Shown: positions 2,550-22,274 of the stretch, piece after piece
Position numbering within the stretch: position 1 is the first letter of the stretch
Layout: every line of letters starts with the position of its first letter
NCBI GenBank assembly: GCA_031403195.1
Contig: JANNSZ010000061.1
Coordinates: 1,653 to 65,652, forward strand
Origin: Planctomycetota bacterium
Lineage (GTDB): Bacteria > Planctomycetota > Planctomycetia > Pirellulales > UBA1268
Length of the DNA: 64,000 nt
Reading direction: 5' to 3'
The notes under the pieces: model-generated
Databases searched by the model: none
Told to the model about the DNA's origin: nothing
The model's input: the letters and a program-made list of their open reading frames with translations, nothing else
Program-made: the position numbers and the translations under genes

Positions 2550-4091
2550 ATGAACCACGACTCCCGCCTGCCACTCTGGCCGATGCTCGCGATCGCCGCA
2601 GGGGGCCTGGTCCTGGCCTACGCCAACGGGTTTCGCGGCACCTTCGTGCTGGATGACGTGGTGGAGATCGTGGAGAACGAGTCCATCCGCACGCTCTGGC
2701 CGCCCTGGGTCCCGATGTTTGAGGGGGGTCAGCTACCGCATCGGCCGCTCCCCTATTTCACATTTGCCCTGAACTACGCTGTTCACGGGCTCACCGTCGG
2801 GGGATACCACGCGGTGAATCTTGGCCTGCACTGCCTGAACGCGTGGATGGTCGCCCTCATCATCACGCACGTGCTCCGTCTGTCGGGCTGGCGGCTGCCA
2901 CCGCGGATCCCAGCGGAGTGGGTGGGGACCGCAGCGGCCTGCATCTGGCTGGTGCATCCCTTACAGACGCAGGCGGTGACGTATATCTACCAGCGGATCG
3001 AGATCATGGGGGCCACCGCGACCTTGGCGACCGTGCTGTGTTTTCTCCTGGCGGAGACCAGCCGCCGCGGCACGTTCTGGCGCGGCCTCGCGGTGGGCTC
3101 GTGCCTGCTGGGGTGCCTCTGCAAGGAAACCGTGATCGCGGCACCGGTGCTGGTGTTGCTCTGCGACTGGATCGTGCTGCGGACAACCGTGCAGACTATT
3201 GTGACGAAGCGGTTGCCGTTCTATGCCGGCCTGTTTGCGTGCTGGCCGCTGGTGGTCTTGCTCGTGAAGTTCCAGGCCGACCGCTATTCCGAATCGAATG
3301 GGCTCGGCTACGGGCCGCTGACCTATCTGGCCAATCAGCCGGCCGTCATTGTCTGGTATCTGCGGCTTACCGCCTGGCCCACGCCACTCTGCTTCGACTA
3401 CGGCTGGCCCGTGTACCAGAACTGGCACCTTCTATTGCCCTGGTGTCTGCTTGTGGGCGCGCCTCTGGTTGGGGCTGTGTACTTTGGTATCCGGCGGCAG
3501 TTGGCCGCACTGCCACCACTCATGTTCTTCACGCTCCTGGCACCCACGTCCAGCCTCGTTCCCTGTAACGAGCTGTGCACCGAGCACCGGATGTATGCCG
3601 CTCTGGCCCCGCTTTCCGCGGTAGTCGCCTTCGCGATCGCCCGCGGTGTGGAGTGGGCCGCCTTGCGGCGTGCGCCGCTTGGACCCGCATGGCGTCGGGC
3701 CGCGGCCTTTGGGCTCGCCATCGCCGCGCTGGTTGGGCCGCTGGCGGCCGTGACCGCAGCCCGGAACACCTGTTATTATTCACGGCTTGAACTGCGGATC
3801 GACACCGTTCTCAAGGCCTTTTCAAATCCGCGGGCCCACCGCATGCTGGCCTGCGAGCTGGTCAACCTCGGCCGGCCACACGAGGCCCTCGGCTTGCTCC
3901 AAAACGCGATCGACCTTCAGCCCCGCTATCCCCTGGCGTACGCCAACTTGGGGCAGGTTTACGAGGCGCTGGGGCAGGTAGACCAGGCGATCGAGGCCTA
4001 CGAACACGCGGTCGAACTCGACCCCGCAAACGCGGTAGTGATGGCGCGGCTCCGGCTGCTCAAACCGGGAACTCCCGGACCGGCTCGCTGA
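2550..4091 (+). CDS. polytopic membrane protein with C-terminal TPR repeats (TMTC/PMT-like putative glycosyltransferase)
   Basis: ORF 2526..4091. N-terminal FVLDDVVEIVENESIR, HRPLPYFTFALNY and GYHAVNLGLHCLNA, followed by many hydrophobic segments, resemble TMTC/DUF1736-type proteins. The C-terminus has TPR-like repeats (AYANLGQVYEALGQVDQAIEAYEHAVELDP). ATG at 2550 is preferred over the alternative start at 2526. Confidence 0.72.
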   Translation: MNHDSRLPLWPMLAIAAGGLVLAYANGFRGTFVLDDVVEIVENESIRTLWPPWVPMFEGGQLPHRPLPYFTFALNYAVHGLTVGGYHAVNLGLHCLNAWMVALIITHVLRLSGWRLPPRIPAEWVGTAAACIWLVHPLQTQAVTYIYQRIEIMGATATLATVLCFLLAETSRRGTFWRGLAVGSCLLGCLCKETVIAAPVLVLLCDWIVLRTTVQTIVTKRLPFYAGLFACWPLVVLLVKFQADRYSESNGLGYGPLTYLANQPAVIVWYLRLTAWPTPLCFDYGWPVYQNWHLLLPWCLLVGAPLVGAVYFGIRRQLAALPPLMFFTLLAPTSSLVPCNELCTEHRMYAALAPLSAVVAFAIARGVEWAALRRAPLGPAWRRAAAFGLAIAALVGPLAAVTAARNTCYYSRLELRIDTVLKAFSNPRAHRMLACELVNLGRPHEALGLLQNAIDLQPRYPLAYANLGQVYEALGQVDQAIEAYEHAVELDPANAVVMARLRLLKPGTPGPAR

Positions 4092-17833: not shown

Positions 17834-17842
17834 AGCTGATTT

Positions 17843-17879
17843 CACGCACGCCGGGCCATCCATGGCCCCGGCGTGCGTG
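17843..17879 (+). terminator. near-perfect 17/18-bp palindrome directly after the stop at 17833 (terminator-like hairpin, no U tract)
   Basis: CACGCACGCCGGGCCAT-CC-ATGGCCCCGGCGTGCGTG. The centre GCCATCCATGGCC is the same as the loop region of hairpin 1 in family A repeats. Confidence 0.4.
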
Positions 17880-18288
17880 CCCGGCCTCCGCCGGGAGGGA
17901 ACACGGCCCTCCAGGCCTCGCGCACGTCGTTGCTACACCGATCTCACCTGTCTCCCATCCATGGCCCCGGCGTTCGGTGCGCCGGTGGCAGAGGCAGGCC
18001 GCATTGGTTCGCCGGTCGGTGACATGTGGCCGCACGCGGCTCTTTCAGATCGCCGCCTTCGCGACGTGAACCCTTCGGGTCACCTGCGGTGTGCGAGTGT
18101 GCTCTCGTGGATGATGGTGCGCCGCTTGGCCGCGCAATAGATGCTCGGCGGCTGCGCGTGCCCCCGACCGACTCCTCAGCATCGTGAGCTCAGGGGAGGC
18201 CGCCGCGGTTGCGAACCGTCCGCAGTCCCCCGGCTTCCGCCGAGGGCTTGTATCGGGCAAACGACGGACATAGGCCGAGGAACAACAC

Positions 18289-18517
18289 GTTCCCACGACA
18301 CCTCCCGCATCGCGTGGGCCAAACTCCTCGCCCGGATCGCCGAGGCGTTCCCGCTTGTGCGCCAGGCCTGAAAAACGGCGCTCCCGCGGAGGATTGTGGG
18401 GGCGTCCGAGGCCATCCGTCACGTCGCAAAACAGCCGCAGACCGACTCGCCTACCATCCATCGATGGTCGTCTGCCATCACCCTGTTGCGGAAGTGTCGT
18501 TGACCGTCCTATCCTTC
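18289..18517 (+). mobile_element. IS91-like element remnant, copy 1 (3-prime end only, internally deleted)
   Basis: 18289-18357 encodes ...HDTSRIAWAKLLARIAEAFPL and matches 20785-20854. 18358-18517 matches 21114-21274 almost base for base. About 259 bp present in copy 2 are missing. Confidence 0.6.
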
Positions 18518-18692
18518 CTTCGAGGAGGGCCATCGTGGCCGGCTCGGGCACGACAACGTAGCTGAGCATGAGGTCGTTGACGACGTTGTCGAGCGTGAGC
18601 GCCGCATTGATCGTGGGCGTGTCACCCAGGATCGACGGATTCGCCGTGCCGTTGCCACTTGCGGGCAGGACTCCCCGTGAAACTGGCCGTAT
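18518..18692 (-). pseudogene. C-terminal fragment of a PEP-CTERM-anchored protein, cut off by the IS remnant
   Basis: Minus-strand translation gives ...GNGTANPSILGDTPTINAALTLDNVVNDLMLSYVVVPEPATMALLEG. This is a VPEP + hydrophobic start of a PEP-CTERM sorting signal that stops exactly at the repeat boundary. An in-frame stop lies about 58 codons upstream. Confidence 0.4.
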
Positions 18693-18795
18693 TCAACCCC
18701 GATCGAGTACGCTCATCGAGGGCCGATCAGCCACGACCGCGTCGCGAACGTGCCGTGGAGCGTCCTCTTCTTTCTCCCCGTGGAGCCTCCAGCCC

Positions 18796-19284
18796 ATGAA
18801 TGCCAAGGCCCTGCTCGATTACAACCTCGGTATGACCGATATGGTGGTGAACGCCTACCTGGGCGACCTCACCGACGCGGACATGCTCGTGCGTCCGGTA
18901 CCAGGGATGAACCACATCGCGTGGCAGCTTGGCCACCTCATCGTGTCCGAGAACCGTCTCCTCAGCATGGTGAAGCCCGGCTCCGCACCCACGCTTCCCG
19001 AAGGCTTCGACGGGCAGTATTCCAAGCAGACCGCGAACATCGACGACGCGACGAAGTTCCATACCAAGGCCCGGCTCCTGGACCTCTATAACCAGCACCG
19101 CGAAGCCACCAAAAAGGTGATCGCGGAGTCCACCGACACCGACCTCGAGCACGCTGGGCCGCAGTTCCCCGACTACGCCCCCTCGGCCGGTGCGGTGCTG
19201 GCCTTGTGCGCGAACCACCCCATGATGCACGCCGGTCAGTGGGTAGCGGTGCGTCGCATGCTCGGCAAGCCAGTGACGATCTAA
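18796..19284 (+). CDS. DinB-superfamily protein
   Basis: ATG 18796 inside ORF 18568..19284: MNAKALLDYNLGMTDMVVNAYLGDLTDADMLVRP..MNHIAWQLGHL...HPMMHAGQ. This shows the four-helix DinB pattern with conserved His residues. Confidence 0.8.
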   Translation: MNAKALLDYNLGMTDMVVNAYLGDLTDADMLVRPVPGMNHIAWQLGHLIVSENRLLSMVKPGSAPTLPEGFDGQYSKQTANIDDATKFHTKARLLDLYNQHREATKKVIAESTDTDLEHAGPQFPDYAPSAGAVLALCANHPMMHAGQWVAVRRMLGKPVTI

Positions 19285-19449
19285 ACCCCGAACCGTCGGG
19301 ACGCGGGTGCACGCTTCAACAAACGTGGTCTTCTGCCTTTCGCCCAAAGTTTATGACTGCTTTGGACTCGGGCGAGGGAAAGGACGCGTCGCCGTGAAGC
19401 GGGCCGCACAGCGCCGCGGCAGATACGTGAAGACACACGGAACTGTCTG

Positions 19450-20166
19450 ATGGCTCGAGAAGAGGGAACCATGCCGCACAACAAAATCATCGTCGTCACG
19501 CTCTACAACCGGCCTCAATACACGAGCGAAACACTGGGTGCCCTGGGCCGGTGTGACGGCATCAACGACTACAAGGTCCTGATCCATGTTGACCCGGGCA
19601 ACAGCGAGGTCCAGCGCCTGGCCAACACATGGCTCCACATGAACAAGGAAGTGTTCACGAACCACACCCGCATCGGCTGCAATCAGAACATCTTCGGTGC
19701 CCTCAACCACGGGTTCCGCGAGTCCGACTACGTCATCATTTTCGAAGACGACTGTGTCCCGTCGTGGGACTGCCTGCGGTACTTCGAGTGGGCCGCCGAG
19801 AGGTATTGCGACGACAAGGACGTGTTCACGGTCGCGTCGTACCGCAACGCCACCGAGCCGCCCGAGACGTGGTGGCAGGTCCATCGCGAACGATGGTTCA
19901 CGCCGTGGGGCTGGGCTACCTGGCGTGACCGATGGCCCGAGATGAGTCGCACCTGGGGCATCGGCACGACCGATTCCTGGGACGTGATCGTGAACCGGGT
20001 CCGCGGCAGCCGGTGCCAGATCACGCCACACCTGGCTCGCACTCAGAACATCGGCGCCGAGAACGGACAGCACGTCCCAGGCCCCGAGTGGCACCGAACG
20101 AACCAGTTCAACGCCTTCTGGTCGGGCAGCGTGAACATCAACGAGATCCACCCCTTCACGGAGTAA
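19450..20166 (+). CDS. GT-A fold glycosyltransferase (GNT-I-like)
   Basis: IIVVTLYNRPQYTSETLGAL, the DxD-type motif IIFEDDCVPS, WFTPWGWATWRDRW and ARTQNIGAENGQH resemble GNT-I/GT-A family transferases. Confidence 0.6.
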   Translation: MAREEGTMPHNKIIVVTLYNRPQYTSETLGALGRCDGINDYKVLIHVDPGNSEVQRLANTWLHMNKEVFTNHTRIGCNQNIFGALNHGFRESDYVIIFEDDCVPSWDCLRYFEWAAERYCDDKDVFTVASYRNATEPPETWWQVHRERWFTPWGWATWRDRWPEMSRTWGIGTTDSWDVIVNRVRGSRCQITPHLARTQNIGAENGQHVPGPEWHRTNQFNAFWSGSVNINEIHPFTE

Positions 20167-20169
20167 CGA

Positions 20170-20316
20170 ATGTTCGGCACACTTGTGAAGGCCTACCCGC
20201 AGCTCGCGTCCAACCTGGACCGTCGTTTTTCGATCCATCTCGGGTGCGGGCCTGACAAGTCGATCACAGGCGGCAGGCCTGGCATCGACACCTACCGATG
20301 GCAACGGCGTGTTTGA
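20170..20316 (+). pseudogene. N-terminal stub of a class I SAM-dependent methyltransferase
   Basis: 48 codons starting 3 nt after the GT stop: MFGTLVKAYPQLASNLDRRFSIHLGCGPDKSITGGRPGIDTYRWQRRV*. IHLGCG...ID is the motif I region. The reading frame ends where the IS91-like sequence begins. Confidence 0.4.
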
Positions 20317-20328
20317 CCGCCGTCAACA

Positions 20329-21081
20329 GTGGAGCATTTCGGCCGCGTGATCGGCGGTCGCGACGACAAGCCCGAGCGAATCCGCTACACGCTCCCGCGG
20401 CACAGCCGCGGGCAGTGGGTCGGGCCGGGGCGGAACAAGAAGCCGACGGCTCCTGACGCGCAGGGCGTGGTAAACCTCTCGCCGTCTGAGTTTCTCGATC
20501 GCCTTGCGGATCTGGTGCCGCCGCCTCGAAGGCACCGGCATCCCACCGGCAGGATGCCGGATTGCGGTCGAGCCAGACCTTGGCTCTGGCATTGACCGCG
20601 AGGCGGCAGGGGACATGGATGGACCTGCCGCCCTGGAGCAAGCTATGGCGTGTTTGCACCGAATCATCCGCTGCGACCGCTTGTGACGGCGCTGGCGATT
20701 GGGAACGCCGGGAAGTCCGCGGGCACGGCGACCAGTGAGCCTCACGCAGGGAGGCTACCCGCGGAAGCACTCGCTGCCGAGCGTCGTTCCCACGACACAT
20801 CCCGCATCGCGTGGGCCAAACTCCTCGCCCGGATCGCCGAGGCGTTCCCGCTTGCGTGCCCGGCCTGCGGTGGCGACATCCGGCTCATTGCCTTCATCAC
20901 CGATCCGGGGCCAATCAGAAGAATCCTCGCGCACGTCAGCGAGCCGGTGGAGCCACCTCCGGTCTCTCCCGCGCGAGGGCCCCCGACTGACTGGGGTGAG
21001 CTCGTGCAGGTCCTGGACGACCGCGATGTCGTCCAGGACTCGTCCGATGAGCTGCCCGTGACTGACATCCACTCGCTCTGA
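20329..21081 (+). pseudogene. IS91-family (Y2 HUH rolling-circle) transposase, C-terminal part only, frame-disrupted
   Basis: ORF 20329..20595 carries ...RIRYTLPR...GVVNLSPSEFLDRLADLVPPPRRHRH. After about 115 nt of unrelated sequence and a frame change, ORF 20650..21081 continues (Y)GVFAPNHPLR...RIAWAKLLARIAEAFPLACPACGGDIRLIAFITDPGPIRRILAHV. Both blocks match the conserved C-terminal region of IS91-type transposases as I remember it. No N-terminal catalytic part is present. Confidence 0.6.
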
Positions 21082-21274
21082 ACCGCCTCCCGCGGGCACG
21101 CGTGGAGCCGGTCTGCGCCAGGCCTGAAAAACGGTGGTCTCACGGAGGGATTGTGGGGGCGTCCGAGGCCATCCGTCACGTCGCAAAACAGCCGCAGACC
21201 GATACGGCTACCATCCATCGATGGTCGTCTGCCATCACCCTGTTGCGGAAGTGTCGTTGACCGTCCTATCCTTC
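20329..21274 (+). mobile_element. IS91-like element remnant, copy 2 (transposase 3-prime part plus about 190-nt non-coding end)
   Basis: The non-coding tail 21082-21274 is duplicated at 18358-18517. It contains the palindrome CCATCGATGG. The element ends 1 nt before the stop codon of the esterase gene at 21276. Confidence 0.6.
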
Positions 21275-21275
21275 T

Positions 21276-22196
21276 CTATTTCGCCCGCTTCTTGGCTTTC
21301 GTCAGCCGCTCGATGATCGGATCGAGCTTCTCGCGGGCGCTCGCGATCACCTTGGATGAAAGACCGTTTTCGCTCAGCGGCTCGCGATCGCGGGCTTTCT
21401 GAGCAAGCTCAAGTGCTTCCTCCTTCTTCCGCTTCCGCTCGAGTTTCGGTACCTCGTCGAGCACGCCTTGGTAATACGGGATGAGATCGGTGGCCACGAG
21501 GAAACACTCTTCGGTCATCTGCTTCGCCTCATTGCACTGCGAGTGCCCCACCTTGGGAAAAAACATCGAGTCCATGAAGAAGCCGGCCTGCTTCGCCTCG
21601 GCCTCGAAGAGCTTGGCCCAGTCGAGCCGACCATAGGCTGCTTCGGGAAAACTCTTGGCCGTGTCGTTCTCGCCGCAGGACATCACAAACGGGATGCTGC
21701 TGGCACGGGGATTGACGCCGCCTGTCTCCCATGTCCCTCCAGAGTGTGCCGCACAGCCCGCCACGAGTTCTGGATGCTTCAGCATGAACCGGTGGGCGTA
21801 TTGCGACCCGCCCGAGAAACCGGCGATAAAGAGCTTGGGGTGGAGTTTGTGCGTCTTGCCGATTTCCTTCGCGACGGCAATCAACTGCTCGTCGCTTTGA
21901 TGCGCGAGCCCTTGGTATCCCTCATTGGGAAACGACGGCCCGACGACGATGCAGTCGTACTTGTCGGCCCAACCCGTGAGCCCTCCCGCTCCCTTGCCAT
22001 TTCCCTTGTACCCGTGGACGCCAACGACCAGCCAGTACGTCTTCGCCGGATCGACCTTGGTCGGAAGGTAGACAAAATATTCCCGACCGGTGAGTGGATC
22101 TTTGAGTGGCGTGTCGTCTGCTATGACGAAGCCGTGCGACCCGAGCGCGAACACGAGCCCTACCACCAGGACCGCGATCGATGGATACCGCGTCAT
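21276..22196 (-). CDS. secreted alpha/beta hydrolase (esterase / PHB-depolymerase-like)
   Basis: Signal peptide MTRYPSIAVLVVGLVFALGSHGFVIA. VGVHGYKGNG, nucleophile elbow IAGFSGGSQYAH and AAHSGG. The ORF opens at 22250, but ATG 22196 gives the signal peptide. Confidence 0.78.
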   Translation of the reverse strand: MTRYPSIAVLVVGLVFALGSHGFVIADDTPLKDPLTGREYFVYLPTKVDPAKTYWLVVGVHGYKGNGKGAGGLTGWADKYDCIVVGPSFPNEGYQGLAHQSDEQLIAVAKEIGKTHKLHPKLFIAGFSGGSQYAHRFMLKHPELVAGCAAHSGGTWETGGVNPRASSIPFVMSCGENDTAKSFPEAAYGRLDWAKLFEAEAKQAGFFMDSMFFPKVGHSQCNEAKQMTEECFLVATDLIPYYQGVLDEVPKLERKRKKEEALELAQKARDREPLSENGLSSKVIASAREKLDPIIERLTKAKKRAK

Positions 22197-22274
22197 AAGG
22201 CCTCCCTGTCGGCAATGTTCGGGGCCACGTTCCCCGCGGATGGCTGGCATTTCAATGCCCGTGTGATCGTGAGT

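Follow-up and report, generated by a model that had tools for sequence, protein, structure and literature searches.

Decayed remnants of an ISCR/IS91-family insertion sequence flank a DinB and glycosyltransferase gene pair in a Planctomycetota contig

The window analyzed here is a stretch of 64,000 nucleotides (nt) from contig JANNSZ010000061.1 (assembly GCA_031403195.1) of a Planctomycetota bacterium, and all coordinates given below are window positions. It harbors two remnants of an insertion sequence (IS) of the IS91/ISCR family, both on the + strand and in direct orientation, which bracket a fragment of a PEP-CTERM gene, two intact genes for a DinB-type protein and a glycosyltransferase (GT), and a short open reading frame (ORF), with an intact esterase gene following on the right. 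The remnants consist of the parts listed here, in which amino acid (aa) positions refer to a reconstructed full-length transposase and L126 is a contig from another assembly that carries a closely related GT gene.

18288–18357, + strand: left remnant, coding part; 23 codons from inside the transposase gene, RSHDTSRIAWAKLLARIAEAFPL, corresponding to reference aa 437–459, found by tblastn with the reconstructed transposase
18358–18512, + strand: left remnant, non-coding tail; ends in the oriIS-type terminus ...GGAAGTGTCGTTGACCGTCCTAT, a motif common to 53 distinct ends
18513–18520, + strand: tandem CCTT CCTT; the end-adjacent tetranucleotide of the family plus a second CCTT that lies outside the PEP-CTERM homology in the comparison with L126
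20274–20316, + strand: junction segment; begins with CAGGCCTGGCATC, common to L126, where it follows an extra ~55 nt; reads ...RRV*PP
20317–20541, + strand: right remnant, transposase block 1; aa ~311–385, ...RIRYTLPRH...LVPPPRRHRH, found by tblastn; 85% DNA identity to locus L001
20542–20646, + strand: hairpin-rich foreign insert; 105 nt in place of 9, in frame, with a TGA inside
20647–21081, + strand: right remnant, transposase block 2; GVFAPN...CPACGGDIRLIAFIT...IHSL, then a stop codon; matches positions 370–488 of the 509 in NCBIfam ISCR_clade_Ia (E = 9e-20)
21082–21269, + strand: right remnant, non-coding tail; ends in the oriIS-type terminus ...GGAAGTGTCGTTGACCGTCCTAT
21270–21273, + strand: CCTT, tetranucleotide of target type adjoining the end; 2 nt separate it from the esterase stop codon

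When a 259 nt deletion on the left is allowed for, the left copy (18288–18517, 230 nt) is ~96% identical to the corresponding part of the right copy (20785–21274). Positions 18288–18357 differ from 20785–20854 by 1 mismatch in 70 nt, and 18358–18517 differ from 21114–21274 by 7 mismatches and 1 indel in 161 nt, with the terminal 67 nt identical. The 19-mer that forms the common end of both copies, GTTGACCGTCCTATCCTTC, has exactly two occurrences in the window (0.01 expected), and no inverted copy of this end was found there. Similarity is lost abruptly at 18517 and at 21274, the latter 1 nt short of the esterase stop codon (21276–21278). The alignments and the two occurrences of the 19-mer thus bear out the original prediction, made from the letters of this DNA, that two + strand remnants share an end sequence; the sharp tail boundaries that it placed at these sites, including the right end 1 nt short of the stop codon, proved correct to within one base. 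A segmental duplication unrelated to an IS was rejected, since the duplicated DNA is IS-derived only and the left flank is unlike the upstream part of the right copy.

The left remnant is 5'-truncated at 18288, with nothing similar further left, and it lacks 259 nt present in the right copy, which comprise the last ~75 codons and 32 nt of the tail. The junction of this deletion is a 13 nt microhomology, TGCGCCAGGCCTG. The 23 codons that remain are internal to the gene, and not its last ~23 codons as had been proposed.

The right copy retains about 223 transposase codons, equivalent to aa 311–534 of a ~534 aa reference built from relative L005, and the protein stitched from its two blocks matches the Pfam profile Y2_Tnp with 29.5 bits (cut-off, 20.9). 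It had been described as ~250 codons in two frames with an insert of ~115 nt; the insert is real, at 105 nt, but the two blocks lie in the same frame and the codon count is the lower one given here. The insert (20542–20646) replaces the 9 nt CGN-TAT-CAC of the relatives, a net gain of 96 nt, and contains three GC-rich hairpins (DNA fold z = -4.1). It has no Rfam match, and no further copy was found in the window or in the fetched loci. Its third hairpin (20606–20622) bears an inverted copy of the 17-mer CCATCCATGGCCCCGGC with 2 mismatches. This 17-mer is found exactly at 17856 and 17955, with a spacing of 99 nt, in a hairpin-rich spacer (17840–17985; DNA fold z = -4.3) located 3' of an AP_endonuc_2 gene, and may be a small repeat of this genome resembling repetitive extragenic palindromes, related to the motif at 20606–20622.

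Homology of the right copy begins just past the RYCARP motif of the relatives, where the window reads RRV*PP, and the segment 20274–20316 is probably a decayed stretch around this tyrosine motif. Across the 64 kb window no other transposase fragment was detected, homology starting at aa 311 and aa 437 only. Because the HxHLH (HUH) motif (reference aa ~206) and the catalytic tyrosine are missing from both remnants, and no intact copy is present in the window, both copies are dead and neither encodes a functional transposase.

The family assignment rests on the stitched 222 aa protein of the right copy, which matched 2424 proteins (best E = 3.9e-105, 77% identity), nearly all of them members of PF04986 (Y2_Tnp), and on a near-complete relative, L036, found in a Kuenenia metagenome-assembled genome (MAG). 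This relative has a single open frame of ~511–544 codons with the domains Zn_Tnp_IS91 (PF14319; 1e-15) and Y2_Tnp (PF04986; 3.9e-25), both above their cut-offs, and annotated IS91-family transposases of proteobacterial plasmids are ~43% identical to its product across 90% of the length. Its best NCBIfam match is ISCR_clade_Ia (1.8e-69), whose score of 235 bits is far under the 925-bit cut-off; against transpos_IS91 it reached 87 bits (cut-off, 125). Judged by these similarities, both repeats are remnants of an element of the IS91/ISCR family of HUH, rolling-circle transposons. The IS91-like identity first proposed was thereby confirmed: similarity to Y2 transposases is overwhelming, and the duplication is confined to IS-derived DNA.

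The 3' ends of the remnants were compared with those of other members of the family. In distant relatives the tail closes with the same ~33 nt, beyond which the sequences part again. When one genome for each species was scanned with GGAAGTGYCRTTGACCG, the matches included many loci of Planctomycetota, chiefly of Pirellulales, Planctomycetaceae and Kuenenia, as well as chance matches, and in 53 distinct ends from Planctomycetota MAGs the GGAAGTGYCRTTGACCG motif continues with (GG/TC)CTAT. The four bases that follow the motif are CCTT in 33 of these ends (62%), TCTT in 6, CCTC in 4 and TCCT in 3, and the flank is random beyond them; both window copies read ...GTCCTAT CCTT C. We read the common 3' end as the oriIS-type terminus of the family, because the ~33 nt motif is conserved in the 53 ends and is then followed by unrelated flank. 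The last bases of the IS itself are probably 18512 and 21269, and CCTT likely behaves as a target tetranucleotide. In the IS91 family a tetranucleotide whose second or third base is T (CTTG, GTTC or GTCC) stays beside oriIS, which lies downstream of tnpA (PMC13181058).

A similar end, ...GCGGTTGGATTTCCTATCC, is present in an ISCR-type element of plasmid pCT14. In this catabolic plasmid of Pseudomonas (L142), a tail ending in ...GGATTTCCTATCC is directly duplicated at 2796–2957 and 3082–3238, just upstream of genes for a ferredoxin and a catechol 2,3-dioxygenase, an arrangement that parallels that of the window. Of the subterminal hairpins, that of L140, the closest relative, is strong (z = -4.8), and the window tails have a 6 bp hairpin only (ACCATC/GATGGT; z = -0.6 and -1.3). 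No covarying consensus helix was found across 41 aligned ends. As for terIS, the left ends of three near-complete relatives align too poorly to define one, and both window copies are 5'-truncated. Some ends (among loci L050, L103, L104, L077 and L043) bear mini-tandems of their last 7 nt, of the form CTATCCTT-TATCCTT-CTATCCTT, and others in the same set of loci carry the full end motif twice in direct orientation, at a distance of 45 nt or 289 nt. Both the mini-tandems and the doubled end motifs suggest that the element used the same site repeatedly.

ISCR elements (ISCR1, ISCR2, ISCR8 and relatives) are among the closest known counterparts. They share with the planctomycete element the Zn_Tnp_IS91 plus Y2_Tnp architecture and ISCR_clade_Ia as best NCBIfam match, the annotated IS91-family transposases that are ~43% identical to that of the intact relative come from catabolic and resistance plasmids, oriIS lies 3' of the gene and ends in ...CCTATCC, and truncated copies with duplicated tails are common near accessory genes. 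The tyrosine motif region, LLRYCARP with a single tyrosine, may also be ISCR-like. The differences are the score, far under the clade Ia cut-off, the separate planctomycete lineage with its own end motif GGAAGTGCCATTGACCGGGCTAT and CCTT, the state of the window copies, which are dead fragments, and the cargo, a DinB/GT pair and not resistance or catabolic genes. With IS91, IS801 and IS1294 the element would share the HUH rolling-circle model, distinct oriIS and terIS ends without inverted repeats, a target tetranucleotide kept beside oriIS, and one-ended transposition, which carries DNA beyond terIS; it differs from them in its transpos_IS91 score under the cut-off, in the tetranucleotide CCTT, and in that no orf121-type gene was seen.

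Decay is widespread in this family. A near-full transposase is kept at only ~3 of the 53 ends, most of the others being solo or 5'-truncated. Ends also cluster: in L043, L077, L104 and L068, two or three of them lie within a few hundred bases, L004 carries two divergent (head-to-head) transposase copies (39–1142 and 1470–2549), and L005 two convergent (tail-to-tail) copies. Truncation at codons ~308–314, just after the RYCARP tyrosine motif and with unrelated DNA upstream, recurs in at least three independent loci, namely the window (~20317) with L126 (~1860), the group L132–L139 (~2983 in L132), and L140 (~3340). About 27 of the 120 best protein matches are 213–219 aa long. A hot spot could account for this recurrence, as could rolling-circle replication that terminates too early or a bias of ORF calling.

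The DNA between the remnants and the gene to their right contain the following features.

18521–18690, - strand: PEP-CTERM-type C-terminal fragment (...VPEPATMALL), ~57 codons, without an N-terminal part; in-frame stop near 18695
18796–19284, + strand: DinB_2/mycothiol-S-transferase-like gene, intact, 162 aa (Pfam DinB_2, E = 2e-20)
19471–20166, + strand: GT-A fold glycosyltransferase, GNT-I-like, intact, 231 aa (Pfam GNT-I, E = 3.5e-8)
20170–20273, + strand: 35-codon ORF stub; begins 4 nt after the GT stop codon; no recognizable family
21276–22199, - strand: esterase/polyhydroxybutyrate (PHB)-depolymerase-like gene, intact; synteny with relatives stops at its stop codon

This intervening DNA (18518 to 20273/20316) measures about 1.76–1.8 kb, and not 2.3 kb as first estimated. 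The Pfam matches listed above uphold the identification of the DinB and GNT-I-like GT genes. The third member of the proposed cargo, a methyltransferase stub with S-adenosylmethionine motif I, is unsupported rather than disproved: the 35 aa stub has no Pfam match even at E = 10, a phmmer search against 1.84 billion representatives gave one spurious match, and comparing it pairwise with the ORF located after the GT homologue in L124 gave nothing usable, so that no homologue was detected with a query whose shortness gives it low power. The GT is rare, with 179 homologues; three near-identical members from three assemblies form its own 97%-identical cluster, beyond which the next best match is 54% identical, and in a metagenome scan the GT matched two loci only, both at 49% identity and in an unrelated glycosyltransferase cluster. 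In the compositional analysis that the original prediction had called for, the cargo showed no anomaly in GC content, GC skew or tetranucleotides: its GC content is 62% against 64% in the window, and its tetranucleotide correlation (r = 0.84) falls inside the window's own range (0.55–0.96). Rfam and tRNA scans found nothing.

The claim that the left IS end truncates a PEP-CTERM coding sequence holds in part. The fragment matches positions 2–12 of the 24 in PF07589 (E = 0.028, 15 bits, under the cut-off of 20.7), and its uninterrupted counterpart in L126 covers positions 1–22 (E = 0.011), nearly the whole motif, which is consistent with a motif cut midway by the IS end; what remains in the window is a ~57-codon fragment with a sub-threshold Pfam score.

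L126 is a 20.5 kb contig that carries one of the three members of the GT cluster and, besides the window, the sole copy of the cassette that could be retrieved, and 11.6 kb of it was compared with the 64 kb window. Its positions 126–1750 correspond to window positions 18649–20273 at 95.9% identity, and this is the only match between them. Identity by segment was as follows.

Upstream spacer, 18649–18795: 88.4%
DinB: 97.3%; 1, 3 and 9 mismatches at first, second and third codon positions
DinB–GT intergenic region: 95.7%
GT: 96.8%; 2, 4 and 16 mismatches at first, second and third codon positions
Stub: 93.5%

Because the mismatches fall mainly at third codon positions, DinB and GT are under purifying selection, with neutral divergence estimated at about 6–7%. 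The stub ends at the same nucleotide in the window and in L126, and in both the sequence continues with CAG(G)CCTGGCATC, then with a transposase fragment. That of L126 is ~70% identical to the window, with indels and an extra ~55 nt, and ends after ~230 nt, where a cold-shock gene follows; no oriIS tail was found after it. The PEP-CTERM tails of the two loci are only ~65–70% alike. Overall signatures are close (tetranucleotides, r = 0.97; GC, 63.4% in L126 and 64.3% in the window). Downstream of the cold-shock gene, at 2656–2938, L126 contains more N-terminal transposase fragments (aa 45–112 and 182–214), so that in this genome, too, IS debris surrounds the cassette.

On the right side, three esterase orthologues (L129, L130 and L131; 75–81% identical) keep synteny with the window only on the glycerate-kinase side. 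Beyond the stop codon each has different genes, none of which is in the window, so that the IS end marks a breakpoint of synteny; no empty, pre-insertion site could be recovered from these orthologues. Independent contigs of the same strain from two Logan runs reproduce the outer junction of each remnant, which supports the junctions with the neighboring genes, and then stop ~31–33 nt into the repeat: L002 ends at window position 18320, and L127 and L128 end 31 nt past the esterase gene. Termination inside the repeats is what is expected for multi-copy sequence.

The analysis shows which element this is, where it ends, that it is inactive and that the cargo is under selection; for the order of events we infer the following history. 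Both copies would be the non-autonomous, decayed remains of one ISCR/IS91-family rolling-circle IS common in Planctomycetota. Because the precise oriIS-type terminus ...GGAAGTGTCGTTGACCGTCCTAT is followed by CCTT at both, each 3' junction was presumably made by a real transposition event, one insertion having occurred 2 nt past the esterase stop codon and the other inside the tail of the PEP-CTERM gene. The right copy would have been stripped of all sequence upstream of codon ~311, and with it of the zinc finger, the HUH motif and the tyrosine, and would later have gained the hairpin element of ~96 nt; the left copy would have lost everything upstream of codon ~437 and, via a microhomology deletion, 259 internal nt. 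DinB_2 and GT would represent a selected, compositionally native accessory cassette that already adjoined a truncated transposase fragment when the window and L126 lineages split, or was acquired in that state. The bracketing itself would most likely result from repeated insertion of the same IS family into one neighborhood, followed by deletion. To this account, in which two insertions and decay leave two direct ends around the genes as a by-product, we give a little better than an even chance. Nothing in the locus is self-mobile, and the intact oriIS ends could be used at most in trans, by a transposase encoded elsewhere.

Several observations weigh against this history. Two tandem CCTT stand at the left junction, and the left edge of the cargo abuts CCTT, as termination at a pseudo-site would leave it. 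The differences between the tails are patchy, with 5 in 13 nt at 18379–18391 and 3 in 5 nt at 18446–18450. The segments 18443–18517 and 21200–21274 gave an approximate split of 0/75 vs 9/86 for the rest (Fisher test; p-value: 0.004), and identical 67 nt termini set against 8 differences elsewhere in the tail hint at recent homogenization, gene conversion, patchwise change, or constraint on the terminus. The surroundings of the cassette are wholly different in the window and in L126 and the GT is rare, both of which fit a mobile cassette. Finally, the transposase fragments are ~70% identical, against a neutral divergence of 6–7%, and simple orthology of the junction therefore misfits unless gene conversion, replacement or other extra events are added.

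A possible alternative, which we hold only tentatively, is ISCR-type capture, in which the segment from the PEP-CTERM fragment through DinB, GT, the stub and the truncated tnpA to oriIS (about 18517–21269) moved as one piece by one-ended transposition, with the transposase supplied in trans. Replication would have started at the right oriIS, passed the missing terIS and stopped at a CCTT-like site in the PEP-CTERM gene, and the unit would have been inserted beside a resident copy at a reusable CCTT target next to the esterase gene. One-ended transposition has been documented for IS91 and IS1294 at frequencies of 1–14% (PMC13181058), and the layout of the locus agrees with it: the cargo lies upstream of tnpA, on the terIS side of the right copy, whose oriIS is intact with its CCTT; the left edge of the cargo is a CCTT directly after that of the left copy; the PEP-CTERM tail is cut in the window and uninterrupted in L126; a second genome carries the cassette and shares nothing else with the window (11.6 kb vs 64 kb); and the synteny of the esterase orthologues stops exactly at the IS end. 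The unit that capture would have moved, however, is not the unit that L126 shares, since the 96% block is limited to 18649–20273, the IS and PEP-CTERM parts are ~70% identical, and L126 lacks the oriIS tail. No cargo-plus-IS unit was found at a second, unrelated site, nor was an empty site, and both remnants lack the catalytic motifs. Cassette composition is unremarkable, the left junction shows two CCTT where the simple model would leave one, and copies ~4% apart speak against a single, very recent event. Mobilization of the cassette by one-ended transposition, as originally put forward, is thus not supported as stated, although the geometry fits, given the mosaic relation to L126, the native composition and the lack of a second unit. 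It is unlikely that 18517–21269 is an ISCR-style capture unit mobilized in trans for which the truncation at codons ~308–314 marks a preferred internal termination site, yielding non-autonomous 'short-form' elements.

Composite units with direct IS copies, such as ISCR1-gene-ISCR1 arrays and IS26 units, likewise have copies in the same orientation flanking accessory genes. The window differs from them in that neither copy encodes a transposase, the left one is a 230 nt tail fragment, and the bracketed unit was not found elsewhere.

A unit driven by homologous recombination appears improbable. Here the direct repeats (70 nt plus 161 nt, 96–99% identical) would let the cassette loop out, be lost or be exchanged, and the mosaic with L126 would have arisen when the central block was recently replaced by homologous recombination. 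The profile of identity to L126 falls from the center outward (about 70%, 88%, 97%, 96%, 97%, 93.5%, about 70%), as such a replacement would leave it, and the two loci have near-identical tetranucleotide signatures (r = 0.97) with both flanks made of multi-copy sequence types. Against this, both repeats are short as well as interrupted, neither a circular nor a deleted form was seen, and the precise oriIS-CCTT junctions, which need transposition, are left unexplained. A mis-joined contig, or a non-IS segmental duplication, is scarcely credible: the source is a MAG contig and the short-read Logan contigs span neither repeat, but perfect identity extends over only 67 nt, below read length, the copies differ in internal structure, the outer junctions recur in independent contigs, and the duplication is confined to IS-derived DNA.

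For annotation, this 3 kb stretch is IS debris with two real genes, the "methyltransferase" label should be dropped, and the esterase gene is intact. More generally, the comparison defines the 3' terminus and the likely target tetranucleotide, CCTT, of an abundant and apparently uncharacterized ISCR-like lineage of Planctomycetota. This lineage, with its end motif and CCTT preference, may be undescribed so far, a literature search having given general surveys only, and the motif GGAAGTGYCRTTGACCGNNCTAT is a ready query for mapping rearrangement hot spots in such genomes. If capture by this lineage did take place, ISCR-type gene mobilization would extend past the proteobacterial resistance and catabolic contexts.

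Among the relatives, further rearrangements of the transposase gene were noted. In P0003 the N-terminus of a tyrosine recombinase is fused to the Y2 transposase, and other relatives are paired with a tyrosine recombinase; an association of IS91 with XerD has been reported (PMC9208149). The relatives P0003, P0007, L005 (7298–7669) and L004 include a permuted or tandem transposase ORF.

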